From an uncultured Bacteroidales bacterium (GTDB lineage Bacteria > Bacteroidota > Bacteroidia > Bacteroidales > UBA7960), in NCBI GenBank assembly GCA_964463915.1, contig CAYXEH010000009.1:1-63363 (forward strand): a stretch of 63,363 nucleotides of DNA, given 5' to 3'. The notes below the pieces were generated by a model. It saw nothing but the letters and a program-made list of their open reading frames with translations. It searched no databases and had not been told where the DNA came from. Each line of letters starts with the position of its first letter. Within the stretch, counting starts at the first letter, position 1. A program made the translations under genes and the position numbers. Below are positions 26,137 to 48,135 of the stretch, one piece after another.

Positions 26137-26169
26137 AAGTGGGGGTTTTAGATGTACCCCCACTTTTTT
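26137..26169 (+). terminator. Intrinsic terminator-like hairpin between porin and opuAC
   Basis: aagtgggggt / acccccactt stem followed by a T-run. Confidence 0.75.
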
Positions 26170-26204
26170 CTAATTTAGAAACAAAACAACAGGAGGAAAA
26201 CCAA

Positions 26205-27077: not shown

Positions 27078-27093
27078 TTTTTTGTAGTTGTTT

Positions 27094-28332: not shown

Positions 28333-28355
28333 GTATTCTTTAAAGCAAACAATTA

Positions 28356-32053: not shown

Positions 32054-34318
32054 ATGATGCAATTTATGGACCGAAACACCCTGAAAACATCCAGTACCAA
32101 ATTCTTGTCATATCTGGCTGATAATAGATATGAAGTGCAAAACCTGAGACATGGTAATGCTGAAATAATATCGGGAATACGGATCATAATTTTGCTGCTT
32201 GTCTTTTTATTTACTGTGAACCCGGCAAGGAGCGATGAGGGGATGTGGTTGCTGCCGGTAATAGGTTCCGATAATATGGAGCAGATCCGCCTTCTGGGAG
32301 GCAATATGTCGGCAGAAGATATTTTCAGTAACGAAAAGATCAGCCTCAGTGATGCAGTGGTTAATGTGGGCAATATGGGGTCAGGGTCAGTGGTATCCGC
32401 CGGGGGATTGGTGCTGACCAATCACCATGTTATTTATGATCATATTCAGCGTCTAAGCACTGCGGAGAATGATTACCTCACAGAAGGGTTCTGGGCCTCT
32501 TCTCATGAGGAGGAACTCCCGGCGAAAGGATTGAGTGTGACATTCCTGAAGAAGATCATTGATGTCACCGACCAGGTAAAGGCTGAAATTGCTTCCCGCA
32601 GGGAAAGTGGTGAAAGGGCCTCCATGCTGATGATTGGCAGGAACCTCTCATCTGAATACACAGAAGGTACAAGTTACTCGGGGTTTTTGTCCAATCACTA
32701 CAAGGGAGGGAAATATTACCTATACATTTATGAAGTGTTTGAGGACGTTCGTTTGGTGGGATTTCCCCCTTCTTCCATAGGAAAGTTTGGTGGCGATGAG
32801 GATAATTTCATGTGGCCAAGGCACGCGGGCGATTTTGGTTTTATCCGCGTGTATGCTGACAAAGAAGGACAACCGGCAGATTATTCCCCGGACAATGTGC
32901 CCTATGTGCCTGATCGTTTCCTGGAAATTGATGCGGGAGGAATCGATGAATTGGATTTTTCTATGGTAATTGGTTATCCCGGGGGTTCCCAAAGGTATCT
33001 GACCGCATCCCAGGTGGAAGATCTGATGAAGGTGGAACATCCCGGACGCATAGCGGCCCGTAAACGACGACTTGACATCATCCGGGAGGAAATGCAAGCC
33101 AGTGATGAAGTCAGGATTAAATATGCGTCGAAATATTTCAATGCCACGAATGGATTGCAGCTATCACAAGGACAGTTAGAGCAACTTAAACAGCATAACG
33201 TTCCGGCCATTAAACGCGCCGAAGAAGAAGCATTCATGGCTTGGGTAGAGGATGATTCCGACAGGAGGGAAAAATACGGCAAAGTCCTGCAAACAATCCG
33301 CGAATCTGTTGAGAAAAAGCGTCCCACTGCCTATGCCCATCACTTGTTGAATGAAGCCATGCTGATGGGGACCGAGGTTTATGTGGCGGGCATTCGTGCC
33401 AATGTGTTTTACCGTAATCTGGATGAAGATGTCACCGGGGCGGAGTTTGCCGAGGCTGTTTCCGGATTTTCAGGCAGGCAATCCGGGTTTTACAAGGATT
33501 ATCATCCTCCTGCTGATCGTCGTGTGGTGGCTGCAATGATGGAATTGGTCAGTGAGGAATTGCCCCGGGAACACCAGCCTGACATTATTCATTATGCGGA
33601 TAGTGCATTTGACGGAGATTACCAGGAATTCGCAGCATATATGTTTGAGAACTCTTTCCTGACTTGTCCGGAGCGTTTTGAGCATTTTATCAACCACCCC
33701 CGGTTGAAAGTGATGCAAGACGATCCGGTGATCCGTTATTCAGCCAGTATTTATGATAAGGCCATTGAACTGCGTGACATTAACCGGGAGTTGTCGGAAG
33801 GGGAACGGGCTGGCTCCCGTCTGTATATGGAGGCAATCCGTGAAATGAATACAGATGAATCCATGTACCCGGATGCCAATTTCACCATGCGAATGAGTTA
33901 TGGGAAGGTGATTGGATACAGCCCCCGCGATGCGGTGTTTTATGAACATGAAACAACATTGCGGGGTGTGATGGAAAAGATGGATGCAGAAGACCCTGAT
34001 TTTACTGTTCCGGCTACACTTCAGTCATTATACTCCGGTAAGCGATTTAGCTCCTATGGGGAAAAGGACCGGATGCCGGTAAATTTCATCACGGATAATG
34101 ACATTACGGGAGGAAATTCCGGCAGCCCTGTCATTGGAGCGGACGGACGCCTGAAAGGGGTGGCTTTTGACGGCAACTGGGAATCGCTGGCCGGAGATGT
34201 GGTTTTTCTTCCTGATCTGAACCGGGCCATTCATGCAGACATCCGGTATGTGCTCTTTATCACGGATCAGTTTGCAGGGGCTTCACATATAATGAATGAG
34301 CTGAAAATCATTTATTAA
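32054..34318 (+). CDS. S46 dipeptidyl peptidase (DPP7-type), copy 1
   Basis: DEGMWL, TNHH, HAGDF, DANFTMR, ITGGNSGSP, FDGNWE; true start uncertain (long leader). Confidence 0.92.
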   Translation: MMQFMDRNTLKTSSTKFLSYLADNRYEVQNLRHGNAEIISGIRIIILLLVFLFTVNPARSDEGMWLLPVIGSDNMEQIRLLGGNMSAEDIFSNEKISLSDAVVNVGNMGSGSVVSAGGLVLTNHHVIYDHIQRLSTAENDYLTEGFWASSHEEELPAKGLSVTFLKKIIDVTDQVKAEIASRRESGERASMLMIGRNLSSEYTEGTSYSGFLSNHYKGGKYYLYIYEVFEDVRLVGFPPSSIGKFGGDEDNFMWPRHAGDFGFIRVYADKEGQPADYSPDNVPYVPDRFLEIDAGGIDELDFSMVIGYPGGSQRYLTASQVEDLMKVEHPGRIAARKRRLDIIREEMQASDEVRIKYASKYFNATNGLQLSQGQLEQLKQHNVPAIKRAEEEAFMAWVEDDSDRREKYGKVLQTIRESVEKKRPTAYAHHLLNEAMLMGTEVYVAGIRANVFYRNLDEDVTGAEFAEAVSGFSGRQSGFYKDYHPPADRRVVAAMMELVSEELPREHQPDIIHYADSAFDGDYQEFAAYMFENSFLTCPERFEHFINHPRLKVMQDDPVIRYSASIYDKAIELRDINRELSEGERAGSRLYMEAIREMNTDESMYPDANFTMRMSYGKVIGYSPRDAVFYEHETTLRGVMEKMDAEDPDFTVPATLQSLYSGKRFSSYGEKDRMPVNFITDNDITGGNSGSPVIGADGRLKGVAFDGNWESLAGDVVFLPDLNRAIHADIRYVLFITDQFAGASHIMNELKIIY

Positions 34319-34356
34319 GATAAATCAACAGATTCCCTTAACAAAATCATGCATCC

Positions 34357-36552
34357 ATGAATTATATATTAAGGAGCCGGAACGGATTTTTTGCGTTTAT
34401 TTTCTTTGTGATCTGTTTGTTCGCATTCAAACCAACACTGAAAGCGGACGAGGGCATGTGGTTACTTCCCTATCTCGAAGACCTGATCATGGAAGACATG
34501 GAAGAACTCGGACTAGAACTGTCTGCAGATCAAATCTACGCTGTCAATAATTCCAGTCTGAAAGATGCGGTGGTGATTTTTGGCAGTGGCTGTACCGGTG
34601 AAATTATTTCACCAGAGGGCTTATTGTTGACCAATCATCATTGCGGGGTGGACTTGTTTCAGGCATTAAGTAATACCGAAACCGATTACCTGGAAGAAGG
34701 GTTTTGGGCGATGAGCCAGGAAGAAGAGTTGCAGGTTCCCGGTCTTTCTGTTTCATTTCTGGTACGTGTTGAGGATGTGACTGACAGGGTTTTGTCTGCC
34801 TCCTCCGGTGATATGGATGATGAGGAAAGGAGCCGTGCCATTCGTCAGGAGCGAAGCAGGATTCAGCAGGAAGTTTCTGAGGAAGGTCCTTACAGGGGAT
34901 CGGTGGAACTCTTCAGAGTGGGAGATGTCGGGCAATATCTGCTTTTTGTGTATCAGGATTATGCTGACGTACGGTTGGTTGGCGCACCGCCTAACTCTAT
35001 CGGTCAATTTGGCGGCGATGAAGACAACTGGGAGTGGCCAAATCACAATGCCGACTTTGCCCTGTTTCGTGTATATATGCAATCTGACGGACAACCTTCT
35101 GAATCTTTCAACGAGCAGAATATACCTTATGAGCCGGCTCATTATTTTCCGGTTGCCCTTACCGGCCTGGATGAGGGTGATTTTGTGATGGCCATGGGGT
35201 ATCCGGGCATTACCAGCCGCTACCTGACTTCTTACGAAATTGAAGAAGAAATGGAAGTGGGAAACAAGATTCGTGCGGATATCCGGGGGAAGAGGCAGGA
35301 AATTTGGAAAGAAGCCATGGAAGAAGACGATGAGGTCCGGTTGCAGTATGCATCCAGGTATTTTAATTCCAGCAATTACTGGAAATATTCAATCGGTCAG
35401 AATGAAGCACTCAGGAACCTGGAAGTGATTGATGATGCCCGAAAACTGGAAGATCGTTTCCGTCAATGGGTCAGGGAGGATCCTGAAAGGGAGGAATCGT
35501 ACGGAGAGGCATTAACGCTCATTGAACACAGCATAAATGAGAGAAGAGAACGGGCATACAGTCATCAATTGATTATGGAAGCCCTGATCGGAAGTCAGTG
35601 TTATTTCCCCTATGGACGGCGAATACATACATTATATTCCCGGCTTATTGACGATGAATATGACCGTCATGATCTTGACAGCCGTGTTCAACGCCTTCGG
35701 GAGGCACTTGACAGGTTTTATGACTATCATATGCCTACTGAACGTGCTGTTCTTGAAGAATTGCTGCCTTACGTGATGCAGGAACTTCCAGAGGAGCATC
35801 AACCGGATTATTTCCGTGTTATTGAGGAGGAGTTTGATGGTTCAACGGATAACTTTATTGCATACCTGTTTGAAACCTCTGTAATGACTGACAGAGAACG
35901 AATAGAGGATTTTCTGCGGAATCCCGATGCAGAAAGACTGAAGAATGATCCTGGTTTTCATTTTACCAATTCGGTGTTTGATAAAGCAGTGGAGCTCAGG
36001 CAGCAAAACACGGCGATTACACGTCGTTTTCTGATTCCGGGGAAAAGGCTCTGGTATGAAGCCCTCAATGATATGATTGCCGAAAGGGAGTTGTATCCCG
36101 ATGCCAATTTCACCATGCGACTTACTTATGGGGGCGTAAAAGGTTATGAGTCAAGAGATGCTGTGATTTATGAACCTTTTACAACCCATGAAGGGATTAT
36201 AGAGAAAGTTGCACGCCATCCTGACCTGTATTCTCCTCCCGATGAACATATTGAGTTACTTACTTCAGGAGACTTCGGCCCGTATGGTGTTGATGGTATC
36301 CTCCCGGTTTCTTTCCTTTCAAATCTTGATATTACCGGGGGCAATTCCGGAAGTCCTGTGCTGAACAGTCGCGGGGAACTGGTTGGGATTGCTTATGACG
36401 GCAACTGGGAAGCCATGTCTTCTGATATTGCTTATTCTCCTGATTTTCAAAGGGCCATAAGTGTTGATATTCGTTACGTGCTATTTATGATTGATAAATA
36501 TGCCGGGGCAGGCTACCTGCTGGAGGAAATGGATATTATCGGTGTCAATTAA
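34357..36552 (+). CDS. S46 dipeptidyl peptidase (DPP7-type), copy 2
   Basis: ADEGMWL, GCTG, TNHHC, HNADF, DANFTMR, ITGGNSGSP, YDGNWE. Confidence 0.93.
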   Translation: MNYILRSRNGFFAFIFFVICLFAFKPTLKADEGMWLLPYLEDLIMEDMEELGLELSADQIYAVNNSSLKDAVVIFGSGCTGEIISPEGLLLTNHHCGVDLFQALSNTETDYLEEGFWAMSQEEELQVPGLSVSFLVRVEDVTDRVLSASSGDMDDEERSRAIRQERSRIQQEVSEEGPYRGSVELFRVGDVGQYLLFVYQDYADVRLVGAPPNSIGQFGGDEDNWEWPNHNADFALFRVYMQSDGQPSESFNEQNIPYEPAHYFPVALTGLDEGDFVMAMGYPGITSRYLTSYEIEEEMEVGNKIRADIRGKRQEIWKEAMEEDDEVRLQYASRYFNSSNYWKYSIGQNEALRNLEVIDDARKLEDRFRQWVREDPEREESYGEALTLIEHSINERRERAYSHQLIMEALIGSQCYFPYGRRIHTLYSRLIDDEYDRHDLDSRVQRLREALDRFYDYHMPTERAVLEELLPYVMQELPEEHQPDYFRVIEEEFDGSTDNFIAYLFETSVMTDRERIEDFLRNPDAERLKNDPGFHFTNSVFDKAVELRQQNTAITRRFLIPGKRLWYEALNDMIAERELYPDANFTMRLTYGGVKGYESRDAVIYEPFTTHEGIIEKVARHPDLYSPPDEHIELLTSGDFGPYGVDGILPVSFLSNLDITGGNSGSPVLNSRGELVGIAYDGNWEAMSSDIAYSPDFQRAISVDIRYVLFMIDKYAGAGYLLEEMDIIGVN

Positions 36553-36607
36553 GGAGGTCAGCATGAACCTTGAAGATGCTTTCATCGGTTTGACAGGAAA
36601 ATATTAA
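36542..36607 (+). pseudogene. 3' relic of a second ABC ATPase gene (contains mini-ORF MNLEDAFIGLTGKY, 36563-36607)
   Basis: Translates VSIKEVSMNLEDAFIGLTGKY* versus KSVEEVKMNLEDAFIGLTGKY* at the end of the intact ATPase 38561-39451. Confidence 0.85.
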
Positions 36608-37372
36608 TCCAAACAGGATAAAATAACGTTGCCATGTATAAATCAATTATTTACAAGGAATGGTTAAAGATACGTTGGGCACTGGCCTTATTCCTGGTTG
36701 CCGGTTTGCTGACACTGGTGAATATTTTTCTGAACGTGCGTTACGGTATACGTTTTATGGATGCCCATGAGTTCTGGTACGGGATAATCATCCAGGGCGG
36801 CAACTATGCGGCATCCTTTAAGTATATCCCCTTATTTGCCGGGTTGGGGCTTGCTGTTTCCCAGTATTATCCTGAGATTCTGGATCAGCGGATTAAACTG
36901 ACCTTTCATCTGCCCATCCGGGAAAACAAGGTATTGCTATTGCAGCATGGGTTCGGACTGGTGTGCCTTTTGGCTGTTTACCTGGTTTACGTGGTTATTT
37001 TCATTACCGGCAGTGGGCTCTACTTTCCAGCGGAGGTGACTGTGATGATTGGTCAAACGATTCTGCCCTGGTTTCTTGGCGGGCTGGCCACTTATTCGCT
37101 TGTGGCCCTGATCATGCTCGAGCCCCTTTGGCTTTACCGGGTGTTGTATGCGGTAATCGCCTATGGTCTGGTGTCTCAGTATTATATAGAAGCGGTTCCG
37201 ATGGCTTATACCCGGGTTATGTGGGTATTTGCTTTGTTCTCGGTAGCCACTGTAATTGTTCAATTATTTTCAGGATACAGATTCAGGAAAGGAGAGATGC
37301 ATCATGGTTAAGATAAGCAGGTATGTATTGGTACTGATCGGGATCATTGTTACTGCCATAGCAATTCCGGAG
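36581..37372 (+). repeat. 792-bp direct repeat, copy 1
   Basis: No mismatch found by eye against 39425-40216 (offset 2844); ORF-track translations in three frames are identical. Confidence 0.92.
36634..37311 (+). CDS. ABC transporter membrane subunit (about 6 TM), copy 1
   Basis: YKEWLK...QYYPE...RIKLTFHLP; hydrophobic; adjacent to ABC ATPase. Confidence 0.75.
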   Translation: MYKSIIYKEWLKIRWALALFLVAGLLTLVNIFLNVRYGIRFMDAHEFWYGIIIQGGNYAASFKYIPLFAGLGLAVSQYYPEILDQRIKLTFHLPIRENKVLLLQHGFGLVCLLAVYLVYVVIFITGSGLYFPAEVTVMIGQTILPWFLGGLATYSLVALIMLEPLWLYRVLYAVIAYGLVSQYYIEAVPMAYTRVMWVFALFSVATVIVQLFSGYRFRKGEMHHG

Positions 37373-38542
37373 CTTTACTGGACAATTTTCAGGGGAACCT
37401 ACAGGCTGCCCGGTGTAATGTATAGCCAGGTGATTGATGATTTCATTCTTGCACAACCCGGTGATGAGGGTACAATCTATTCAGATCCCTCCGGCAATAC
37501 ATATACTGTAGACGAGGCGGAGCAGAAGTTGCCGTTATTGTCTCACAGACAACTCTACGCGGATGGTATAATGCCTGATAGTTTAAAAGGTGTTCCTCTT
37601 GATCATGAGACCATCAGTACCCACAGGGCTTCCTACATGTTTAATCCGCGAAACTTTCAGACTCCTTCGCCATTGTTATGGCCATTGCTGGAGTCCAGAA
37701 GTGGTCGGGCCAGTCTTTCTTTACCGGAAGACTTTTTCCGGCTTGATGAGAGCATTGAATTTATTGTGGCAGAAACCAACCAGGTAGACCGGGAAAAGAG
37801 CAGGGTATTTAACCAGGCTCTGCTCCGTGAAGGTTTTGTGTTTCCTGCCGACCTGGTTGCAGGAATCCCCACAGCAAGGAAAAGCCGGGATGATGGTTAC
37901 TTTATTACTGATCACACCGGAGCCCTGTTTCATTTAAAAATGGTCCAGGGAGAACCGTATGTGTCTTCCATTGAGACACCTGATGAGATGGATGTTATTT
38001 TTATCGAATGTGTGGATATGAGTAGCCGAGAATTATTCGCTTATGTGTATACCGCTTCCAATAATGTATTCATGCTGCTGCAGGAGGATTACCGGCTGCA
38101 GCAGTTGCCCATTTCAGAATTTAACTTCCGGGCTGACCGGCTTCGTATCCGTCATGACTTATTCGGCAAAACCATTAGCCACATCAAAGAAGATCGGCTA
38201 TTTGTAAAACGAATCAATAAGTCTTATGAGCAAATTGATCAATATGAAACTTCCTGGTCGGCAAGGCATGAGCGACCTGACTATAGAATGTTCTCATATC
38301 TGTTTCCCTTTGAACTAAGATTGGAAAAACCAGAATCCGAGTATATCGGCTTTTTCCTTCAGTTCACATCCGGTTATTACTGGGGGATTTTCCACATCCT
38401 GCTCCTTGGGATCACTGTATGGTTGATTAAACGAAAGAAGCAGCCTGTCAGGAAACATATCCCTGATTTGGTACTTGTTTTGCTGACAGGACTGTTTGGA
38501 TTTATTGCGGTCCGGGTTTTCCCAAATAGATTTTATGATTAA
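37304..38542 (+). CDS. DUF4857-like membrane-anchored periplasmic protein, paralog 1
   Basis: N-terminal TM, large soluble domain (WPLLES, EDFFR, GYFI.D..G.LFHL), two C-terminal TMs; ATG overlaps permease 3' end. Confidence 0.65.
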   Translation: MVKISRYVLVLIGIIVTAIAIPELYWTIFRGTYRLPGVMYSQVIDDFILAQPGDEGTIYSDPSGNTYTVDEAEQKLPLLSHRQLYADGIMPDSLKGVPLDHETISTHRASYMFNPRNFQTPSPLLWPLLESRSGRASLSLPEDFFRLDESIEFIVAETNQVDREKSRVFNQALLREGFVFPADLVAGIPTARKSRDDGYFITDHTGALFHLKMVQGEPYVSSIETPDEMDVIFIECVDMSSRELFAYVYTASNNVFMLLQEDYRLQQLPISEFNFRADRLRIRHDLFGKTISHIKEDRLFVKRINKSYEQIDQYETSWSARHERPDYRMFSYLFPFELRLEKPESEYIGFFLQFTSGYYWGIFHILLLGITVWLIKRKKQPVRKHIPDLVLVLLTGLFGFIAVRVFPNRFYD

Positions 38543-38560
38543 ATGATCCATTAAAACCTA

Positions 38561-39451
38561 ATGTGTATGTACGCCATTGAATGTAACAACCTGACGCATT
38601 ATTACGGGAAAAAGTTGGTATACGAGAATCTGAGCTTTCGGGTAGAGGAGGGTAAGATTCTTGGGTTGCTTGGAAAAAACGGTTCCGGCAAGTCCACCAC
38701 CATCAATATTATGAATGGATTTCTTCATCCGACATCGGGGGAGTGCCTGATCTACGGGGAGGACTCCCAGCATTTGAGCCCGGCAACAAAAGAAAGAATC
38801 GGATTTCTGATTGAAGGGCATATTCAGTATGCCTTTATGAATGTACACCAGATTGAAAAGTTTTATTCCGGATGTTACCGGCGTTGGAACAGTGATCCAT
38901 ACTGGGAATTGTTGTCTAAGCTCCAGGTCACCCCGACACAGAAAATATCCAGAATGTCCTGCGGCCAGCGTTCACAGGTTGCACTTGGGCTAATTCTTGC
39001 CCAGGATCCCTCCCTGCTGGTGTTGGATGATTTTTCCATGGGTCTGGATCCGGGTTACCGCAGGCTGTTTATTGATTATTTGCGTGAGTACGCCAAAGCC
39101 AACAATAAGACAGTTTTTGTGACTTCGCACATTATTCAGGATATGGAGCGGTTGATTGATGATGTGTTGATCATGGATTATAATCGTATCCTGGCTCAAC
39201 AACCTGTGGAAGAGTTTATGGGGAAATTCCGCCGTTATGATATTGTGCTGGAGAATCCTGATATTCAGTTTCCAAAGACAGAAATCGCTGTCAACGTGGA
39301 ACAGATCCGTGATAAAGTCAGCTTATTCGGTTATATCACACCTGAGGAGGTGAAGGGCTTTATTTCACAGCAGGGGATATCATGTAAGTCAGTTGAGGAG
39401 GTCAAAATGAATCTTGAGGACGCCTTCATCGGTTTGACAGGAAAATATTAA
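38561..39451 (+). CDS. ABC ATP-binding protein (exporter/NatA-like, atypical motifs)
   Basis: Walker A GKNGSGKST, signature MSCGQ, Walker B LVLDDF, D-loop GLDP, H-loop TSH. Confidence 0.9.
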   Translation: MCMYAIECNNLTHYYGKKLVYENLSFRVEEGKILGLLGKNGSGKSTTINIMNGFLHPTSGECLIYGEDSQHLSPATKERIGFLIEGHIQYAFMNVHQIEKFYSGCYRRWNSDPYWELLSKLQVTPTQKISRMSCGQRSQVALGLILAQDPSLLVLDDFSMGLDPGYRRLFIDYLREYAKANNKTVFVTSHIIQDMERLIDDVLIMDYNRILAQQPVEEFMGKFRRYDIVLENPDIQFPKTEIAVNVEQIRDKVSLFGYITPEEVKGFISQQGISCKSVEEVKMNLEDAFIGLTGKY

Positions 39452-40216
39452 TCCAAACAGGATAAAATAACGTTGCCATGTATAAATCAATTATTTACAA
39501 GGAATGGTTAAAGATACGTTGGGCACTGGCCTTATTCCTGGTTGCCGGTTTGCTGACACTGGTGAATATTTTTCTGAACGTGCGTTACGGTATACGTTTT
39601 ATGGATGCCCATGAGTTCTGGTACGGGATAATCATCCAGGGCGGCAACTATGCGGCATCCTTTAAGTATATCCCCTTATTTGCCGGGTTGGGGCTTGCTG
39701 TTTCCCAGTATTATCCTGAGATTCTGGATCAGCGGATTAAACTGACCTTTCATCTGCCCATCCGGGAAAACAAGGTATTGCTATTGCAGCATGGGTTCGG
39801 ACTGGTGTGCCTTTTGGCTGTTTACCTGGTTTACGTGGTTATTTTCATTACCGGCAGTGGGCTCTACTTTCCAGCGGAGGTGACTGTGATGATTGGTCAA
39901 ACGATTCTGCCCTGGTTTCTTGGCGGGCTGGCCACTTATTCGCTTGTGGCCCTGATCATGCTCGAGCCCCTTTGGCTTTACCGGGTGTTGTATGCGGTAA
40001 TCGCCTATGGTCTGGTGTCTCAGTATTATATAGAAGCGGTTCCGATGGCTTATACCCGGGTTATGTGGGTATTTGCTTTGTTCTCGGTAGCCACTGTAAT
40101 TGTTCAATTATTTTCAGGATACAGATTCAGGAAAGGAGAGATGCATCATGGTTAAGATAAGCAGGTATGTATTGGTACTGATCGGGATCATTGTTACTGC
40201 CATAGCAATTCCGGAG
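39425..40216 (+). repeat. 792-bp direct repeat, copy 2
   Basis: Matches 36581-37372. Confidence 0.92.
39478..40155 (+). CDS. ABC transporter membrane subunit, copy 2 (identical to copy 1)
   Basis: Identical 225-aa translation. Confidence 0.75.
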   Translation: MYKSIIYKEWLKIRWALALFLVAGLLTLVNIFLNVRYGIRFMDAHEFWYGIIIQGGNYAASFKYIPLFAGLGLAVSQYYPEILDQRIKLTFHLPIRENKVLLLQHGFGLVCLLAVYLVYVVIFITGSGLYFPAEVTVMIGQTILPWFLGGLATYSLVALIMLEPLWLYRVLYAVIAYGLVSQYYIEAVPMAYTRVMWVFALFSVATVIVQLFSGYRFRKGEMHHG

Positions 40217-41386
40217 ATCTACTGGACAATTTTCAGGGAAGTACCGTCAGCCCCAAATGTGGTCTATAGCCGGATATTGGATGACTTTATGATGGTTCAG
40301 CGTGAGGATGGAGTATTGATAAGAAAAGATGCATCAGGCAATGTGTATACACGCGATGAATTTGAAGAAAGACTACCCATGTTGTTTTTCAGACAGTTAT
40401 ATGCTTCGGGAGATATGCCTGACACAATTAAGGGGGTAGAGATGGATCATGCAACACTTAGTCAGTATTCGTCTAATTTTACCTTTCGCCCGGCAGAGCT
40501 GAATACGCCCCAGCCTCCTTTATGGCCTTTACTTGAAGCAGAAAGTGGAAGGGTAACCCTCTATTTGCCGGAAGACTTTTTTCGCCTCGATGAGCAGATT
40601 GAATTTATTGTGGCAGAAACCAATGAAGTGGATCGTAAAAAAAGCAAAAAATTCAATGATGCCTTAATCAAAGAAGGTTTCCGTTTTCCGGCGCGACTGA
40701 TCGGTGGGTTACCTACCGCTAAAAAAAACAAAGAAGAGGGATATTTCATCAAGGATGACGCGGGTGATCTTTTTCATTTGATGCAAAAAAAGGATAAACC
40801 CTATGTGGCCCGGATCGATATCCCGGATGAAATTAACATTATCCATATTAAATGCGTTGACAAGGTTACGGGTGAATATTATGCATTCCTGTTTACAGAT
40901 AATGATGAGGTATTTTTATTGATGCAGGACGGATATCATTTACAAAAATTGCCGGTTGATAACTACGATCGCCATATTCATCGCCTGAGGGTTCGCGAAG
41001 ACCTGCTTAACAAAACCATCGCTGTCATCGGAGATGACCATCTCGATGTTGTTGTGGTGAACTATGATTATGAAGTCGTAAACAGGTATGAAGATCATTG
41101 GGACCCCCCCCATACACGTTCTGATCATAAACGCTTCAGCTGGTTGTTTCCTTTTCAGCTTAGTCTGCAGATTCCCGAAAGCAACTATGTCACTATGGAT
41201 TTGTTTTGGGGATCCCACTATATGTGGTTGCTAACGCATGTGGCACTCACGGGCCTTGCCATATGGTTGTTGCGGCGAAAAAAGCGGCCGTTAAAAGACA
41301 ATGCAATCGACCTGTTGCTCATTCTAGTGACTGGGATTTATGGGTTTGTTTCCACCCGGATATTTCCCAATAAATTTTACAAATAG
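40148..41386 (+). CDS. DUF4857-like membrane-anchored periplasmic protein, paralog 2
   Basis: Same length (412 aa) and motifs as paralog 1 but diverged after residue 23. Confidence 0.65.
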   Translation: MVKISRYVLVLIGIIVTAIAIPEIYWTIFREVPSAPNVVYSRILDDFMMVQREDGVLIRKDASGNVYTRDEFEERLPMLFFRQLYASGDMPDTIKGVEMDHATLSQYSSNFTFRPAELNTPQPPLWPLLEAESGRVTLYLPEDFFRLDEQIEFIVAETNEVDRKKSKKFNDALIKEGFRFPARLIGGLPTAKKNKEEGYFIKDDAGDLFHLMQKKDKPYVARIDIPDEINIIHIKCVDKVTGEYYAFLFTDNDEVFLLMQDGYHLQKLPVDNYDRHIHRLRVREDLLNKTIAVIGDDHLDVVVVNYDYEVVNRYEDHWDPPHTRSDHKRFSWLFPFQLSLQIPESNYVTMDLFWGSHYMWLLTHVALTGLAIWLLRRKKRPLKDNAIDLLLILVTGIYGFVSTRIFPNKFYK

Positions 41387-41417
41387 CAGATTTGTAATAA
41401 GTTACTGTTGGTTAAGC

Positions 41418-41434
41418 TGTTAACTAGTTGTTAA
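41418..41434 (-). promoter_or_regulatory. TTAACA-N5-TTAACA box (reverse orientation) upstream of the TonB-dependent receptor
   Basis: Plus strand tgttaa-ctagt-tgttaa. Confidence 0.55.
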
Positions 41435-41582
41435 GGGTAAAAGTTTTTGTAGATTTTTTGTCATTTGCTTTGTATATTGGGAAGGTCTTAAAGGAATACC
41501 GGGATCAGTTTAAGAGTATTCCTTATAAAAGCCGACATAGTTAATAGCAATTATTTTTATTGACCAGTAAATAGTGGGTTTA

Positions 41583-44456
41583 ATGCGTAGCAGCTATCTT
41601 TTTACTCTGTTTCTTTTTCTGATGCTGTTCAAAGGAGCAAACGCCCAGGAGCGACACGAAGTCTCCGGGTTGGTCATAGAGACGACCGATAGTATTACCC
41701 TGCCGATGGTGGCTGTGGGTATTAAGGAGTTGGATATATGGGTTGTTTCAGATATGGAAGGGAAGTTTACAATGCGGAATGTGCCGTCCGGTCAATATAC
41801 CGTACAGGCAAGTTGTCTGGGTTTTGAAAGATTTGAACAGCCCATCAATGTTCCGGGGGAACATGAAATTCTGGTTTCAATGAAACCAACCTCTCTTGCG
41901 CTGGATGAAGTTGAAGTTACTGCCAGGGAGGGAGAACGTATAGGCAGTTCTACTGTCATCGGGAGCTCAGCCATTGAACATGTTCAGCCCTCTGACATTT
42001 CTGATATCCTTCAGCTGCTTCCAGGGCAGGTGTCTGCCAATCCGGATCTTTCGAGAGAGAGCCAGCTTTCATTAAGAGACCTGGGTGATCCCAGGTCTAA
42101 CCCAATGGCTGGTCTGGGTACAGGCCTGGTCATTGATGGAGCTCCGGTTATGAACTCTGCCAACCTGCAGGCACCATCCACTTCCACCGTAGGGGCCCTG
42201 GGCAGGCTTGATACAGATTTTGCCTCCACAGCCGGCACAGGGGTGGATGTGCGTGAGTTCATGGTAGATAACATTGAGTCAGTTGAAATTGTCAGGGGTA
42301 TTCCTGGCGCAGAGGAAGGGAATATACTCAGTGGAGTGGTTCGGATTACCACTAAAAAGGGTGAAAGTCCACTGCGTCTCAGGACCAAAGTTGATCCCAA
42401 TATCAAACAGCTCTACATGGGTCGCGGCCTGCGACTTTCTGACAATCTTGGGACCCTGAACCTGGATTTGGATTATGCCCAGACTCAGGCCGATATTCGC
42501 TTTCCTTATCGTACCTATAACCGGCTGAGCGGTAACGTAACCTATAATAACACGATTCTTTCTGATTCCAGACCGCTTACTTATAATTTCTCACTGCGCT
42601 ACGCGAATACAAGCGACGTGAGGGAGAGTGATCCGGACATGCTGGATATAGAGGAATTCTCCTCACAGGAACATAATTTAGATCTTGCCTTGTCCGGCAG
42701 ATGGATCATCAACAGTGCCCTGCTGACCAATATCCGGTATAATTTTTCCGGACGCTATCAGGACCAGCACAGTAAAGATATTCGTCATCGTTCTTTATCG
42801 CAGCCCGAAGTTCGTCCCGTTGCAATGGAACCAGGTGAGTTTGAGTCAGTGTTTTTACCCTCCCGATATGTGGCGGAAGTGAATTATTATGGAAAGCCCT
42901 ACTATTTTAATGCAAATGTAAGTGGGCGGAAAGTGAATCGCTGGGGTGATGTTACCAATACAATCACAGGTGGTTTTTCTTACCGGATTAGTGGCAACAA
43001 TGGACGGGGTCGTATTTATGACATGGATAGTCCGCCCCGGGACGGTTCCAGGCCCAGACCTTTTACCGACATCCCTTCACTGTCGCAACTTGCGATGTTC
43101 ATCGAAGAGGCGGTAATGATGCCATTAGGTGCTACCACACTGGAATTTGAAGCCGGTTTGCGTTTTACCAATATGCAGCCTGAAGGAATGTTAGAATCTG
43201 AGGTAAATACCACTATACTTGACCCGCGTTTGAATCTGAAATATAATATCTTTGAAAAACGAAACGGGTTACTGAAAGATCTCAGTTTAAGGGTTGGCTA
43301 CGGTGTTTTTTCTACAGCGCCAACTCTTTTACACTACTTTCCGGATAAAGCATATACCGACCGGGTAACATTTAACTATTATGATGCCTCGCTTTCCCCG
43401 CCTCATACATTGGTTATTACAAATACGGATGTAATAGAGGATACTCGTAATTATGACCTGGGGCCGGCCAGAAACACCAAATTTGAGACAGGTGTAGATT
43501 TTAAATTGGGTCGCGTTGAGGTGTTGCTTACTGGTTATTTCGAAGAAATGGAAGATGGATTTTCTTTCCACCGTGAATATGGAACTTTTATTTTCGACCG
43601 CTACGAACGCCTGGAGAGAGGTGGCTTATTTCCGGAATACCTTCCGGGGGTAGGAGTTGTTTACAATGATCCTGACACGGGAAATCAAGTGACTGTTCCT
43701 ACCAGGCCGGACACCACCTTTGTTTCCCATTCTTACCCGGAAAATTCAGAGCGCACCGTGAAGCGTGGGATTGAATATAGTATTGATTTCGGAAATGTGC
43801 CCGGATTGAAAACCTCTTTCCAGCTGAATGGGGCATACATGATTGTACAACGTCAGGATATGACAGATTACCTGGAAAGACCAACCACTACATGGGAGGG
43901 GCAGCGGCTTCAACTCGTAGGCTTATTCCCAGGAGGGCAGGGGCAAATCAATGAACGGTTTAATACAAATATCCGTACCACCACTCATATACCCCAATTG
44001 CGTCTGGTTGTTTCTATGACAGCCCAGGTTATTTGGAGAGAGAGCAGGACAAAAATATACGAAGATAAAAACGGAAATCCATGGGTAATGACTGAACAAC
44101 CTACAGATGATCCTTACGGTGACCGTACCCAGCGGAAGTTTGTTTACCCACTGGGGTTTTATGACCCGGCAATGAATTTCCATCCCTGGGAGGATCATAT
44201 GGCCGGGGTGCGACCCTATAATGACCTGATTGATCACCATACCAACCCTGAATTGTTCATCCCTATTGTAGCACCACCGGTTTTTCAGATTAATACAAGG
44301 ATAACCAAGGAAATATCAGATGCAGCTACTCTGTCGTTCTTTGTGAATAACCTGACCAATTACCGGCCATTGCAAAAGCAGCGGGGCCGGACGGGGAGTT
44401 ATACCCGGCGTAACCAATCGATATATTTCGGAGGAGAACTAACAATCACCATTTAA
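41583..44456 (+). CDS. TonB-dependent receptor with N-terminal carboxypeptidase-regulatory-like domain (non-SusC type)
   Basis: Signal peptide ANA-Q, LDEVEVTA TonB-box-like, plug LQLLPG...VIDG...NIESVEIVRG, terminal YFGGELTITI. Confidence 0.9.
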   Translation: MRSSYLFTLFLFLMLFKGANAQERHEVSGLVIETTDSITLPMVAVGIKELDIWVVSDMEGKFTMRNVPSGQYTVQASCLGFERFEQPINVPGEHEILVSMKPTSLALDEVEVTAREGERIGSSTVIGSSAIEHVQPSDISDILQLLPGQVSANPDLSRESQLSLRDLGDPRSNPMAGLGTGLVIDGAPVMNSANLQAPSTSTVGALGRLDTDFASTAGTGVDVREFMVDNIESVEIVRGIPGAEEGNILSGVVRITTKKGESPLRLRTKVDPNIKQLYMGRGLRLSDNLGTLNLDLDYAQTQADIRFPYRTYNRLSGNVTYNNTILSDSRPLTYNFSLRYANTSDVRESDPDMLDIEEFSSQEHNLDLALSGRWIINSALLTNIRYNFSGRYQDQHSKDIRHRSLSQPEVRPVAMEPGEFESVFLPSRYVAEVNYYGKPYYFNANVSGRKVNRWGDVTNTITGGFSYRISGNNGRGRIYDMDSPPRDGSRPRPFTDIPSLSQLAMFIEEAVMMPLGATTLEFEAGLRFTNMQPEGMLESEVNTTILDPRLNLKYNIFEKRNGLLKDLSLRVGYGVFSTAPTLLHYFPDKAYTDRVTFNYYDASLSPPHTLVITNTDVIEDTRNYDLGPARNTKFETGVDFKLGRVEVLLTGYFEEMEDGFSFHREYGTFIFDRYERLERGGLFPEYLPGVGVVYNDPDTGNQVTVPTRPDTTFVSHSYPENSERTVKRGIEYSIDFGNVPGLKTSFQLNGAYMIVQRQDMTDYLERPTTTWEGQRLQLVGLFPGGQGQINERFNTNIRTTTHIPQLRLVVSMTAQVIWRESRTKIYEDKNGNPWVMTEQPTDDPYGDRTQRKFVYPLGFYDPAMNFHPWEDHMAGVRPYNDLIDHHTNPELFIPIVAPPVFQINTRITKEISDAATLSFFVNNLTNYRPLQKQRGRTGSYTRRNQSIYFGGELTITI

Positions 44457-44476
44457 TCATCAAAAACCCAAACACT

Positions 44477-45682
44477 ATGAAGAAATTAGTAATGATTTTC
44501 ACCCTGGCACTCATTTCAGGAGTTATCTTTTACTCCTGTGAAGATGATGGTGCCACGATTTATGATGTCACCGTTCAGGTGAATTTCCCTGAAATGGAAG
44601 GACTGGATATTACGGATTACTCCGGTGTGGATGTCCGTATGACCAACAACCTCACTGGTATTGAATCGGCTGCTGAAACCAATGCCCAGGGCATTGCTGA
44701 ATTCGCGGTTGAAGAAGGCAGTTATGACATTTCTGCCACTTATGCTACGGAAGATTATAACTTTAGTGGCATTGATTCAAACCGTTCCGTGGCCTCAGCA
44801 GAGAGTTTTGAAGTAGACCTCGTGGCGACAGCTGTTGGAGGAGGACTGCTGTATAGTGAAATCTACCATACCGGTTCAGAAAACCCTGAAGGTAAGAATT
44901 ATTCCGGTGACTCTTTTGTTGAGATCTACAATAACAGTGATGAGGTAATCTATCTGGATGGTCTTTGTATAGGCCAATTGGATCATCTTACCTCCAATGA
45001 ATCGCGCTGGCAGGAAGATGGCGAGCTTTATTCGCGGCTCCCAATCACCTGGCAGACCTGGATGATTCCCGGAAATGGAGAAGATTACCCGCTTGAGCCC
45101 CGGGAAAGTGTCGTCATAGCTAAGACAGCAATTAACCACCAGGATGATCCTGCCGGTAATCCACTTTCGCCTGTTGATTTATCTGATGCCGATTTTGAAA
45201 CCTTTATGGATAATGACCGGGGAGATGTGGACAATCCTAATGTAACCAATATGATCCAGGTATACAATGCGGTCAGCCCGATGGTTCCTGACTGGATTTT
45301 GGATACCCGTGGGGCTCCGATGCTTTTGTTCAGGTTACCTACGGGTACCGATTATGAAGCCTTTGTATCAGATCCGGACAATTTCATGCAACGTCTGGAT
45401 GGTGTAGGAAGCTTTGAATATTTGATGGTTGATCCTGAATGGGTGATCGATGCTGTTGAGATTGCAAGACCTGGAGATGTGGTTCATAAAGGACTACCCA
45501 CCAATCTTGATGCAGGTCATGTGATGACAGAAGAAGGAACGGGTGCAGGAACCAGCATTCGCCGTTTGGTTGAAGCCATATTGGACGGAAATGTGATTTA
45601 CAAAGACACCAACAACTCCACTGAAGACTGGATCAGCGACAGAACCCCTAAACCGAATGAGCATCCGGCAAGCGTAGATTAA
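44477..45682 (+). CDS. DUF4876-like surface lipoprotein
   Basis: Lipobox YSC then EDD; SEIYHTG, FVEIYNNSDEVIYLDGL, DLSDADFE, WVIDAVE, DTNNSTED. Confidence 0.72.
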   Translation: MKKLVMIFTLALISGVIFYSCEDDGATIYDVTVQVNFPEMEGLDITDYSGVDVRMTNNLTGIESAAETNAQGIAEFAVEEGSYDISATYATEDYNFSGIDSNRSVASAESFEVDLVATAVGGGLLYSEIYHTGSENPEGKNYSGDSFVEIYNNSDEVIYLDGLCIGQLDHLTSNESRWQEDGELYSRLPITWQTWMIPGNGEDYPLEPRESVVIAKTAINHQDDPAGNPLSPVDLSDADFETFMDNDRGDVDNPNVTNMIQVYNAVSPMVPDWILDTRGAPMLLFRLPTGTDYEAFVSDPDNFMQRLDGVGSFEYLMVDPEWVIDAVEIARPGDVVHKGLPTNLDAGHVMTEEGTGAGTSIRRLVEAILDGNVIYKDTNNSTEDWISDRTPKPNEHPASVD

Positions 45683-45710
45683 AAACATGATTAATTATTA
45701 ATAAAGGATT

Positions 45711-45739
45711 GCAGTGCAGGCATTTAAGGCCTGCACTGC
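45711..45739 (+). other. Intercistronic GC-rich stem-loop (mRNA stabiliser or weak terminator)
   Basis: gcagtgcaggc / gcctgcactgc perfect 11-bp stem, 7-nt loop, no long T-run. Confidence 0.65.
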
Positions 45740-45765
45740 TTATCCCAATCAACTTACTTGTTGGA

Positions 45766-47343
45766 ATGAATACAAAAAAAATCATAGTGGTTATTTTACT
45801 GCTTATTGTTGCTGGACCACTCCCTTTGTGGGCATCCCAGGAAATGGATACGATTTTTTCCAGGAAAACGGCAGATTTTTTTGAACAGATTGATATGATG
45901 AATCCCTGGCATTTGAGTAAAAATCCTGCAGGGTTTGTGTTTTATCCGGCAAATAATATCAATCGCATCCAACTAGGGTATTTCAATAAGAACGATAACC
46001 TCCGATGGGCCCAGGCCCCGGGAAGCACGATCAGTTATACAGCCGAAACAGAGGGGATAAGGAGGATCGGACGTGTTGTTGCCAAAGGAAGTTTTCGTTA
46101 CCAGAATAGTCACTACCGTGACATTCTATTCAATAATACCTCAGTCTTTGATAACCGGAACATTTATACCACCGGCGATACCCTGGGCGGACCACAACGC
46201 AAAGAGGGTTATCTGATGACTGCAGGAGCGGGTCTTGCGCTGAAAGATAACTGGTTCGTCGGACTGGATTTTGACTACAGTACAGGAGTTGGAGCCAAGA
46301 TGCAGGATCCCAGGAATTTGAATGATCAATCCCGCCTGGACATTATTCCGGGAGTCATTTTCCGGCATGGTCAGCTTTTTTTTGGTCTTAGCGGCGGACC
46401 CGTCTGGGAAAGAAACCAGGTGAACATCAAAAATATGCTGGAAGAGCGTCATTCACTGTTCCATATGATGGGTATGGGATATTATAACCTGTCCCGTAAT
46501 ATTAGCAATGAATCATATTTATTTGACAAATTCGGGCTTCATGGATCTGTTCAGTTTGGACTGGAAAAGCCGGGTTTTGGTACTTTTCACACGATTCGTT
46601 ATTCAGGATCTGACATGAAGCGACTGGAGGGAAGCCATTATCGGCTGCTGGCCGGAATTACCCATCGTGATGAGTTGTCCTATAAAGGGAAAATTTTGCT
46701 GGAAAAAGAACGGTATTTGCATCATGTGAACATCAACGCGTCATATCTCCGTTTGAACGGGTCCGAAATCAGTCAGGAAACCTATTCTGTCGGAGAGGGG
46801 CACCTCAGGTGGTTTGAAGTAAGGACCATCAGATGGATCGATGACAAACATATTGTGTATGACATGGATGCCGGATTGAGTTATCAATTGATCCGGCTGG
46901 GCAGGCGTGGCCGTCCTTTCACATACCGCATTGAAGGCGGGGCAGGTTTTCGTAGTTATGAGGCCAATCATTACCCGGTACATCTTTATGGGTCTTATAA
47001 TGTTCAGACTATCACACCCTATTTGGAGTATCGTCATTATTTCCGATTTTTGCACTTTGATTTGGATCCTTCTGTCAGGCTGACCTCAAGACATGCGCTT
47101 TCACAGAATTACCAGGTACAGGATCAGGACCGTTTTAATCCGGAGATCCCGGAAACCGATTTCCGGTACCTCGTCACCGACTACTATAAGGTGGATCTTG
47201 GCGTGAAACTTTCGCGGTCTTTGCGCATAGGAAGGTTGCGGGAGACCTATCTGGACATTACAGGATCTTATTTACACATCCCGGAGTGGCAGGAAAATAA
47301 TTACGATAGGATGTTAGAGGTATCTTTCGGTTTGGTTTTCTAA
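45766..47343 (+). CDS. Outer-membrane beta-barrel (DUF6850-like)
   Basis: Signal peptide, NPW..S.NPAG, KMQDPR, terminal SFGLVF; DUF call from memory of this gene triad. Confidence 0.6.
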   Translation: MNTKKIIVVILLLIVAGPLPLWASQEMDTIFSRKTADFFEQIDMMNPWHLSKNPAGFVFYPANNINRIQLGYFNKNDNLRWAQAPGSTISYTAETEGIRRIGRVVAKGSFRYQNSHYRDILFNNTSVFDNRNIYTTGDTLGGPQRKEGYLMTAGAGLALKDNWFVGLDFDYSTGVGAKMQDPRNLNDQSRLDIIPGVIFRHGQLFFGLSGGPVWERNQVNIKNMLEERHSLFHMMGMGYYNLSRNISNESYLFDKFGLHGSVQFGLEKPGFGTFHTIRYSGSDMKRLEGSHYRLLAGITHRDELSYKGKILLEKERYLHHVNINASYLRLNGSEISQETYSVGEGHLRWFEVRTIRWIDDKHIVYDMDAGLSYQLIRLGRRGRPFTYRIEGGAGFRSYEANHYPVHLYGSYNVQTITPYLEYRHYFRFLHFDLDPSVRLTSRHALSQNYQVQDQDRFNPEIPETDFRYLVTDYYKVDLGVKLSRSLRIGRLRETYLDITGSYLHIPEWQENNYDRMLEVSFGLVF

Positions 47344-48116: not shown

Positions 48117-48135
48117 AAGAGTTAACAGTATTGGA

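Follow-up and report, generated by a model that had tools for sequence, protein, structure and literature searches.

Identical permease segments in an otherwise diverged DUF4857 transporter locus of an uncultured Bacteroidales bacterium: a probable case of recent gene conversion

Duplicated genes of prokaryotes may undergo concerted evolution, as in the pair tufA and tufB. Interlocus gene conversion and concerted evolution of such genes are dealt with in PMC6053082. The locus described here resembles known cases of interlocus conversion in that a paralogous stretch is far more alike within the genome than it is to the orthologues, the borders of the tract are sharp and give way to diverged paralogous flanks, and the genes concerned belong to one complex. 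Unlike known cases of concerted evolution, however, only part of the module (a permease gene and 23 codons of its partner) has been homogenised, the adjoining partner genes are still saturated, and one event would suffice.

Two described systems resemble the transporter itself. The NosDFY(L) ABC transporter (PDB 7znq, 7o0y), like the one predicted for our window, combines an ABC-2-type permease, a separate ATPase and a large outer partner, but that partner is of the NosD type, whereas in the window it is a membrane-anchored, partly propeller-like DUF4857 protein (best Z 7.3), and the neighbours are TonB-receptor genes rather than nos genes. In Bacteroides thetaiotaomicron, the cluster BT3625-BT3633 is described in passages of PMC10434189 as encoding DUF4857, a hypothetical protein, an ABC ATPase, DUF4876 and a TonB-dependent receptor, and as being induced 37- to 128-fold under iron depletion, so that this putative counterpart of the system appears to respond to iron starvation. 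Compared by gene content, the cluster differs from the window in also containing PepSY-TM and fimbrillin genes and, according to the same passages, in having two DUF4876 genes where the window has two DUF4857 genes; no duplicated permease is described in those passages.

The window analysed is the 63,363-nt stretch of contig CAYXEH010000009.1 (assembly GCA_964463915.1) from an uncultured Bacteroidales bacterium, and the features needed for the argument are as follows.

34357..36552, + strand, S46 dipeptidyl-peptidase gene, S46b (PF10459, E 8.9e-225)
36553..36607, + strand, ATPase-tail relic of 55 nt, in frame, comprising the last 17 codons and stop of a lost upstream ABC ATPase
36581..37372, + strand, exact repeat copy 1, 792 nt
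36634..37311, + strand, permease gene 1, 225 aa, predicted to have six long helices and a NosY-like ABC-2 fold
37304..38542, + strand, DUF4857 paralogue a (DUFa), 412 aa (PF16149, E 1.6e-79; model pLDDT 89.5)
38567..39451, + strand, ABC ATPase (PF00005), the sole intact one at the locus
39425..40216, + strand, exact repeat copy 2, 792 nt, a single 792-letter contig in public run X1
39478..40155, + strand, permease gene 2, 225 aa, identical to gene 1
40148..41386, + strand, DUF4857 paralogue b (DUFb), 412 aa (PF16149, E 1e-83)
41574..44456, + strand, TonB-dependent receptor, conserved in relatives
44477..45682, + strand, DUF4876 predicted lid lipoprotein, conserved in relatives
45709..47343, + strand, DUF6850, conserved in relatives and closing the downstream partner block (41574..47343)

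Both DUF4857 proteins far exceed the PF16149 cut-off of 25 bits (267.4 and 281.2 bits), and their real ATG codons, at 37304 and 40148, overlap the permease stop. Paralogue a is laid out as an N-terminal membrane helix, a beta-rich outer domain and two C-terminal membrane helices. The start of the ABC ATPase at 38567 was set by alignment with orthologues, the ORF opening at 38561, and its best NCBIfam matches were of the PmtA/GldA/DrrA type, all under their cut-offs. A scan of 36001-41700 for the Bacteroidota -7 promoter motif gave no site.

The permease in the window had 0 Pfam and 0 NCBIfam matches, and hence none to an ABC-2 membrane family of Pfam, while 4 of 48 members of its family matched PF12730 (best E 5.9e-05). 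Its model (pLDDT 85.9) showed six long helices, and the best Foldseek matches were NosY chains (TM 0.56-0.58, probability 0.96-0.98, yet with a weak E of about 0.6), followed by LptF/G, TarG, KpsM and ABCG. Searches of PDB sequences gave 0 matches with the permease family profile and, with the DUF4857 profile, one at E 0.031 that was of no use; fold searches with DUF4857 returned generic beta-propeller pieces alone (Foldseek TM 0.22-0.28; VIA Z up to 7.3). In the predicted complex of the two proteins, the shared N-terminal helix was placed on the permease with an ipSAE score of 0.80, the best control scoring 0.00, and three runs agreed in at least 96% of contacts with a partner pLDDT of at least 84; 116 of 157 solved complexes attained the mark used, compared with 2 of 215 mismatched pairs. 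The model supports, but does not prove, binding between the permease and DUF4857, and a hypothesis for this uncharacterised system would be that DUF4857 is a membrane partner whose N-terminal helix and outer loops attach it to a permease of the NosY-like ABC-2 type.

We compared the window with itself position by position and found that the longest exact run at an offset of 2844 was 792 nt (36581-37372 = 39425-40216), and when the full assembly (2.70 Mb, 109 contigs) was searched at the DNA level, this repeat matched at 100% in exactly two places. From left to right it contains 27 nt of ABC ATPase tail (8 codons and the stop, 39425-39451), a 26-nt spacer, the entire permease ORF and 69 nt equal to exactly 23 codons of the DUF4857 genes, with a GC content of 0.455 like that of its surroundings. 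On the left, homology extends for just 28 nt (36553-36580), with 6 mismatches, and ends at the native stop of the S46 peptidase gene. On the right, paralogous sequence continues for about 1170 nt with differences of about 45-57% per 100 nt; ungapped identity there drops to 0.43-0.58 in each 100 nt, apart from a single protein-conserved island at 0.77. The identity, the content and the divergence on both sides had all been claimed from the sequence alone, and our comparisons bear them out. Inside the tract 0 of 792 sites differ, compared with 6 of 28 to its left and about 48% to its right; chance is excluded as the source of the contrast between the tract and its left neighbour (Fisher p = 9e-10).

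The short left flank is informative about the age of the duplication. Between the first 28 nt of the relic and the living ATPase tail there are 6 differences, whereas the last 27 nt of the relic lie within the exact repeat, and five of the six differences fall at third codon positions of the ATPase frame (p = 0.018), suggesting that this stretch diverged while still a working gene and that the homologous copy is therefore older than the identical tract. Relic and living tail each differ from the L027 orthologue at 10 of the 28 sites (hand count on the alignment) and are thus nearer to each other than either is to orthologues. The proposal that a second ATPase once lay upstream and that a single one survives is upheld by the in-frame relic, the 28 nt being the whole of the evidence for an older ATPase-permease duplicate. 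The C-terminus and stop of S46b, the left flank of the repeat, are orthologous to those of L027, and the point at which this native stop adjoins the relic is a deletion junction. In the related loci L012/L013, a sigma/Spy module sits between S46b and the transporter; in the source genome (G000, 95.9% complete), a Spy-like query found no match and the best ECF sigma hit had 26% identity, so that the module was not found there.

The two pairs of paralogues differ sharply in divergence. DUF4857 a and b share 53% amino acid identity with saturated third positions, and their third-position identity, 0.2-0.53 in 30-codon windows from codon 31 on, equals that of the a/b pairs of the congeneric loci L027 and L026, so that there is no further young tract in DUFa/DUFb. 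In the tree, the a clade (support 92/94) and the b clade (100/99) each hold the copies of three species, which indicates that the a/b split predates the species and confirms, for the DUF4857 pair, the ancient duplication that had been proposed. The permease paralogues, by comparison, are 100% identical to each other but share only 71-72% nucleotide and 73-78% amino acid identity with the L027 and L026 orthologues. The permease duplication may be younger than or as old as that of DUF4857, and the ATPase-permease duplication may have occurred in the common ancestor of the three species or be particular to the source lineage. By our own count, 18 of the 23 shared DUF4857 residues match L027 DUFa, 16 match L027 DUFb and 17 match the b-type copy of G026, a weak hint that the 23 common codons of paralogue b are a-type.

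Gene orders in relatives place the window in a series. The order is ATP-perm-DUFa-DUFb in L027, DUFa-ATP-perm-DUFb in L026 and ATP-perm-DUF in the outgroups L023/L024, and the order in the window is, on this comparison, an intermediate linking those of L027 and L026. Both of these congeners carry the two DUF4857 paralogues with a single permease gene, the source genome alone among the three congeners with the system having two, and the ATPase gene adjoins the permease in 10 of 10 related loci examined. Searches returned three loci among genome contigs with DUFa (one on the same contig as G018) and two loci among metagenome contigs with the permease. Nothing convincing was found when remnants of a lost permease were sought upstream of L027 DUFb and L026 DUFa, and the DUFa-to-ATPase spacers of the window and L026 (24 and 37 nt) are too short to show common descent. 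The three orders of one locus in three congeners document the reshuffling of an operon by duplicate-and-delete steps.

These data are best explained by a recent homogenising event over older homologous sequence, that is, by gene conversion rather than by selection, to which we assign a probability of about 0.62. The conversion put forward by the sequence-only reading remains the best fit to the contrast of 0/792 with 6/28, five of the six differences being at third positions. We infer in what order the events took place, in which direction conversion ran and that conversion, not selection, was the cause, as follows. The locus, whose neighbour is a set of TonB-dependent receptor genes, would encode one ABC-2-type transporter, made up of an ATPase with a NosY-like permease and, as membrane partners, two DUF4857 proteins that diverged anciently. 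In this lineage the ATPase-permease part would have doubled, giving ATPase1-perm1-DUFa-ATPase2-perm2-DUFb, and a deletion running from the S46b stop into ATPase1 would then have removed the sigma/Spy-like regulatory module and ATPase1, leaving its last 17 codons. Recently, in a single non-reciprocal homologous recombination, one unit may have been overwritten with at least 792 nt of the other. The tract runs from within the ATPase tail, via the spacer and the permease, to DUF4857 codon 23, and ends on the right where a/b similarity collapses. Because the 23 codons look a-type, copy 1 is the probable donor at that end, and DUFb would have been given a foreign N-terminal helix. The two permease genes would now yield one protein, as in the single-gene relatives. 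The mechanism is an ordinary one, and the locus may serve as a clean, textbook-style case of gene conversion within a bacterial operon.

The same identity may instead have been maintained by selection, recurrent conversion being favoured so that both DUF4857 partners fit one permease and anchoring helix, a reading we regard as unlikely though the strongest of the alternatives. It gains from the modelled binding of permease and DUF4857, far above the best control, from the modelled contacts of DUFa residues 1-20 with the permease, all of them within the identical tract, and from the closer likeness of relic and living ATPase tail to each other than to orthologues. In addition, the sole contig covering 39556 in public run X3 reads G where the window has A, with no A-bearing contig there; if both copies in X3 carry G, a new substitution would have reached the other copy once the strains had separated, although this depends on contigs retaining balanced variants. 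On the other hand, many modelled contacts (residues 120-159, 340-350 and 405-411) lie beyond the tract, the tract ends at the a/b similarity collapse, where any conversion tract would stop, and one event is enough for the data. The idea of a constant and a variable region fares poorly against the congeners, since in L027 and L026 a single permease already serves DUFa and DUFb alike, and another, identical gene would therefore be redundant and add no new protein.

Related genomes were also to be checked for identical permeases within one genome, and no second near-identical permease was found in any other genome sampled. For example, the genomes G390, G154 and G268, from other families of the order, have the two-module arrangement ATPase-perm-DUF4857-perm-DUF4857 and resemble the window in having one ATPase for two permease/DUF4857 modules and in the tight joining of each DUF start to the preceding permease gene, but the ATPase leads, nothing is homogenised, and identity is 36-39% within the permease pairs and 26-29% within those of DUF4857. 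Identity is thus no requirement of this architecture and, given the congeners with one permease and the other families with diverged modules, selection for identical permeases is not needed. Of the suggestion that the permease and anchoring helix are kept identical so that both subunits can dock, the part concerning the interface is supported, as the modelled contacts use DUF4857 residues 1-20, whereas a need for identity is not. The fullest version would hold that the permease and the first DUF4857 membrane helix are a co-adapted contact unit kept identical by repeated conversion in this lineage, so that two very different outer domains mount on one ATPase-driven ABC-2 core, the a-type helix on DUFb being a functional swap and no accident; we consider this unlikely, but if true it would give an example of a bacterial transporter in which a homogenised core stays constant while a pair of outer modules varies.

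Less probable again is a single recent segmental duplication, whether of the full 2844-nt unit or of the stretch from the ATPase tail through the permease to the 5' end of DUF, with no conversion and no second copy before it. The perfect identity of the tract, its GC content matching the surroundings, and the presence of two permease genes in only one of the three congeners all speak for it; however, a fresh copy would also be identical in the left 28 nt, which are homologous yet carry 6 differences, mostly synonymous in the ATPase frame, and DUFa, which a unit of 2844 nt would have to include, has the a-type genes of L027 and L026 as old orthologues.

The identity was also examined in Logan contigs (k=31) of public runs from two studies, X1 in one and X2, X3 and X4 in the second; these are contigs rather than raw reads and can drop minor variants. 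In X1, the repeat forms one unbranched 792-letter contig with a mean word depth of 21.2, which is 2.6 times, rather than twice, that of three flanking contigs (8.34, 7.77 and 8.15), and a balanced SNP at 41711 is preserved as two 61-letter contigs, so that differences between the copies should have split the 792-letter contig. Both entry junctions are bridged in the second study, the one between S46b and the repeat by X2 record 8 (which ends at 37372) and X4 record 19, the one between the ATPase and the repeat by X3 record 16; exit contigs in X2 and X3 begin at 37343 and 40187. The contigs therefore show two entries into the repeat (S46b and ATPase) and two exits (DUFa and DUFb), with no variant branches inside it in X1 and no missing flanks. 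No public contig spans a complete copy plus both flanks, and the flanking contigs at both junctions on the right share only 30 letters with the repeat, under the 31-letter bridging rule; linkage is therefore deduced from the logic of the graph and from synteny with L026/L027. We read the stretches without cover (39325-40186 in X2 and 36523-37342 in X3) as the repeat having been placed once together with low-depth gaps, rather than as absence; a 5-nt gap within the repeat in X3 (39858-39862), like the 2.6-fold depth in X1, is without explanation. A 2844-nt deletion product or excised circle would contain the same 31-mers as the tandem form, so that deletion or amplification by way of the repeat, though conceivable in principle, would leave no trace in k=31 contigs.

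When a draft genome from a metagenome contains identical repeats, graph-level or read-level checks are called for. That the assembler merged or looped similar copies, or one copy, is very improbable: although the genome is a 109-contig draft from a metagenome-style assembly, no available read spans a whole copy and a repeat that forms one node of a de Bruijn graph is output at both of its places, making the copies identical by construction, the contig graph disfavours such a collapse (the read level lying beyond contig data), as the node in X1 is unbranched while a balanced SNP elsewhere is kept apart, the same node ends recur in the second study, all entries and exits are present, and the perm-DUFa, DUFa-ATP and perm-DUFb adjacencies occur in unbroken contigs of relatives.

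The longest exact run at an offset of 2844 in the window is 792 nt, with copy 1 at 36581-37372 and copy 2 at 39425-40216, and a repeat search reported the same pair; G000, the assembly holding the window (2.70 Mb, 109 contigs, 95.9% complete), has exactly two copies. Each copy comprises the last 8 codons and stop of an ATPase gene, a 26-nt spacer, an entire permease gene and exactly 23 codons of a DUF4857 gene whose ATG overlaps the permease stop. Offset comparison and gene layout thus agree with the sequence-only reading of the repeat and its content. The locus is arranged as follows:

32054-34318, +, S46 peptidase a (S46a)
34357-36552, +, S46 peptidase b (S46b)
36553-36607, +, ATPase-tail relic, 55 nt
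36634-37311, +, permease 1
37304-38542, +, DUF4857-a (DUFa)
38567-39451, +, ABC ATPase
39478-40155, +, permease 2
40148-41386, +, DUF4857-b (DUFb)
41574-44456, +, TonB-dependent receptor (TBDR)
44477-45682, +, DUF4876
45709-47343, +, DUF6850
47415-49401, two-component pair, divergent

The 792-nt repeat is real, and is best explained as a recent gene-conversion tract over an older ATPase-permease duplicate. In such a scenario, the locus, with its two ancient DUF4857 paralogues, would have had its ATPase-permease part duplicated; loss of the DNA between the S46b stop and a point inside the first ATPase gene (ATPase1) would have removed that ATPase and a regulatory sigma/Spy module; and conversion would recently have laid the tract over the older duplicate. 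Gene conversion of duplicated genes is a mechanism of a known kind (PMC6053082).

On the left, homology gives out at 36553, where it abuts the native S46b stop codon; L027, the locus of a congener, has the orthologous stop. The 28 nt outside the tract differ at 6 sites, of which 5 are third codon positions when read in the ATPase frame (p = 0.018), versus 0/792 in the tract (Fisher p = 9e-10). By hand count on the alignment, comparison with the L027 orthologue gives 10/28 differing sites for the relic and 10/28 for the living tail (the 3' end of the only intact ATPase), and comparison of the relic with the living tail gives 6. Because the differences are mostly third-position and the tract has none, the relic appears to be the remnant of a second ATPase gene that diverged under coding constraint, and the perfectly identical tract an overlay younger than that divergence. 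Just before the junction (36541-36560), 7/9 letters are, by reading, common to the S46b end and the homologous place in the living ATPase, a short homology through which the sigma/Spy module and the bulk of ATPase1 may have been deleted.

On the right, mismatches at 37373 and 37375 are followed by a 19-nt identical stretch and a collapse of similarity from 37395. The DUFa and DUFb proteins align with zero gaps at 52.7% identity (55% with the upstream TTG extension); third-position identity between the two genes, 0.2-0.53 across 30-codon windows covering them from codon 31 on, is the same as in the a/b pairs of two congeners. A second young tract at 37700-37800 was rejected, as this island of 0.77 identity is a segment conserved at the protein level. 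A maximum-likelihood tree was built from 10 DUF4857 proteins after removal of residues 1-31. Its a clade (G000, L027 and a second congener locus, L026; support 92/94) and its b clade (the same three and G026, from another genus; 100/99) each hold several species, and the DUF4857 duplication is therefore ancient. The divergence noticed from sequence on both sides of the repeat, and its great age for the DUF4857 pair, are thus borne out. The G000 DUFa branch (0.50) is longer than those of its orthologues (0.17 and 0.30), and the protein retains all 17 invariant residues of a 44-sequence alignment; a database protein, P0121, is a DUFa variant 96% identical.

The 23 residues common to both copies are matched at 18/23 positions in L027 DUFa, 16/23 in L027 DUFb and 17/23 in the b-type copy of G026 (hand count), and positions 4, 8 and 15-17 match a-type only. 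Since they look more a-type than b-type, copy 1 is tentatively put forward as the probable donor at the DUF4857 end of the tract.

The permease query matched 5/61 related genomes including G000, and 2/24 within the genus; DUF4857 (PF16149) matched 4/77 genomes of the family including G000. Gene orders in relatives were:

L027 (single metagenome contig of a G023-like species; in G023 itself the boundary between contigs C2 and C169 falls within DUFa): S46a-S46b-[ECF sigma, two small ORFs, Spy/Metal_resist-like]-ATPase-perm-DUFa-DUFb-TBDR-DUF4876
L026/L012 (G018-like species): S46-[ECF sigma, two small ORFs, Spy/Metal_resist-like]-DUFa-ATPase-perm-DUFb-TBDR-DUF4876
G026: Spy-like-ATPase-perm, contig break, DUFb-type-TBDR
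L023, L024, L016 (outgroups): ATPase-perm-DUF, single copy

The ATPases of the three species (85-87% aa identity), and likewise their permeases (73-78% aa, 71-72% nt), seem to be orthologues whatever their place in the locus. The window order, (ATPase relic)-perm-DUFa-ATPase-perm-DUFb, is the intermediate from which one deletion gives the L027 or the L026 order; the doubled ATPase-permease may either date from the common ancestor and have been kept homogeneous, or have arisen later in the window lineage. Relatives have four genes inserted as a module where the window passes from S46b to the transporter (L012:13025-15064, L013:2775-4736): an ECF sigma factor gene, two family-less small ORFs and a gene for a Metal_resist protein resembling Spy/CpxP. 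The module was not found in G000, where the Spy-like query had no match and the best of 6 ECF matches was 26% identical, which fits a single deletion from the S46b stop into ATPase1; regulation of the locus in G000, with its two-component pair downstream at 47415-49401, may therefore differ from that in relatives.

The sequence-only reading had proposed that conversion keeps the permeases identical so that two different subunits can dock, as in a constant and a variable region. The permease profile matched 50/401 genomes of the order, 8 of which have at least two matches (G000, G390, G154, G268, G190, G207, G294 and G337); the loci looked at were those of G390, G154 and G268, where the copies lie ~1.9 kb apart. 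All three, from other families (L034, L036 and L035, respectively), read ATPase-perm-DUF-perm-DUF and, like the window, have one ATPase with two permease/DUF4857 modules; however, the within-genome identity of their permeases is only 36-39% (26-29% for DUF4857), whereas the window's pair is identical. One ATPase with two modules is thus an established form with diverged permeases, possibly a heterodimeric transporter, and the co-divergence of the pairs suggests that permease plus DUF4857 is the duplicating unit. In addition, L027 and L026 have both DUF4857 paralogues beside a single permease gene. Given these diverged and single permeases, identity is no requirement, and recency would explain it. 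An adaptive role is unlikely, though one hint of ongoing conversion exists: in run X3 the base at 39556 is G, and none of the contigs at that site carries A.

The sequence-only reading had also raised collapse of two similar copies by the assembler. Among 21 public runs listed, 3 hold at least 0.94 of the words, all as k=31 contigs, and four were compared with the window: X1, possibly the source sample, and X2-X4, from a second study. In X1 the repeat is one 792-letter contig, flanked by S46b (depth 8.34, ending 30 letters inside the repeat), DUFa-ATPase (7.77, 37343-39454) and DUFb (8.15, beginning at 40187) contigs; its mean word depth, which does not equal copy number, is 21.2, an unexplained 2.6x rather than 2x the ~8 of each flank. 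A balanced SNP at 41711 survives in X1 as a pair of 61-letter contigs (depths 3.2 and 3.8), and therefore an inter-copy difference should have split the 792-letter contig. In the second study, one X2 contig (record 8) extends from S46b across the entire repeat to exactly 37372, X4 record 19 (36242-36754) bridges the S46b/repeat junction and X3 record 16 (37343-39857) the ATPase/repeat junction. Both right-hand junctions have 30-letter overlaps only, under the 31-letter bridging rule (DUFa contigs begin at 37343 and DUFb contigs at 40187 in X2 and X3 also), and no X1-X4 contig covers one copy with both flanks; the 31-mers of the two-copy form would also arise from a chromosome with the unit deleted together with a 2844-nt circle. 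Nevertheless, with the X1 contig unsplit and the S46b/repeat and ATPase/repeat junctions bridged in the second study, a pure assembly artefact is very improbable. An unexplained 5-nt gap (39858-39862) separates two X3 contigs within the repeat, with no variant arms. X1-X3 differ from the window at 37600, 37622, 38053, 38071, 39037, 41315 and 41711 (X1 reads T at 38053 and 38071, the window C), indicating that close strains coexist. The 820-bp contig carrying a complete permease 88% identical to the window's (P0002), about the size of the repeat node, could be the collapsed repeat of a sister lineage or merely a short contig.

The best NCBIfam rows for the ATPase are PmtA-, GldA- and DrrA-type, all far under cut-offs, and the permease has no match in Pfam or NCBIfam; of its family (489 matches), 4/48 sampled members touch PF12730. 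The permease model (pLDDT 85.9, six long helices) best matches NosY chains of NosDFY (TM 0.56-0.58, prob 0.96-0.98, E about 0.6), followed by other ABC-2-type permeases. The confident DUF4857 model (pLDDT 89.5, pTM 0.82) shows a beta-rich outer domain together with one helix at the N-terminus (2-29) and two at the C-terminus (360-405), and its fold matches only generic propeller pieces. Modelling supports permease-DUFa binding, with ipSAE 0.80 in 3/3 runs (best of 3 controls, 0.00), contact agreement between runs of at least 96% and partner pLDDT of at least 84; the ipSAE mark is reached by 116/157 solved complexes and 2/215 mismatched pairs, counts that are rough because own alignments were used. 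Predicted DUFa contacts are residues 1-20, 120-127, 140-159, 189-190, 340-350 and 405-411. B. thetaiotaomicron BT3625-33 comprises DUF4857, ABC ATPase, DUF4876 and TonB receptor genes and is reported to be induced 37- to 128-fold by iron depletion (PMC10434189), and DUF4876 proteins are predicted to be lids of TonB-dependent transporters (bioRxiv 10.1101/2023.03.17.533168); by analogy, the DUF4857 system probably belongs to an uptake or handling route related to iron.

Upstream, 26139-29192 encodes an OpuA-type glycine-betaine ABC system (OpuAC binding protein, ATPase with CBS domain, permease), in agreement with the saline labels of the runs containing the window stretch. The tandem paralogues S46a and S46b (32054-36552) are ~41% identical, with a common 94-nt stretch at 72% identity (33864-33957 and 36092-36185); contigs from other organisms in these runs align at conserved S46 motifs (36092-36132 and 36376-36417), and L026 has only one S46 gene at the corresponding place.
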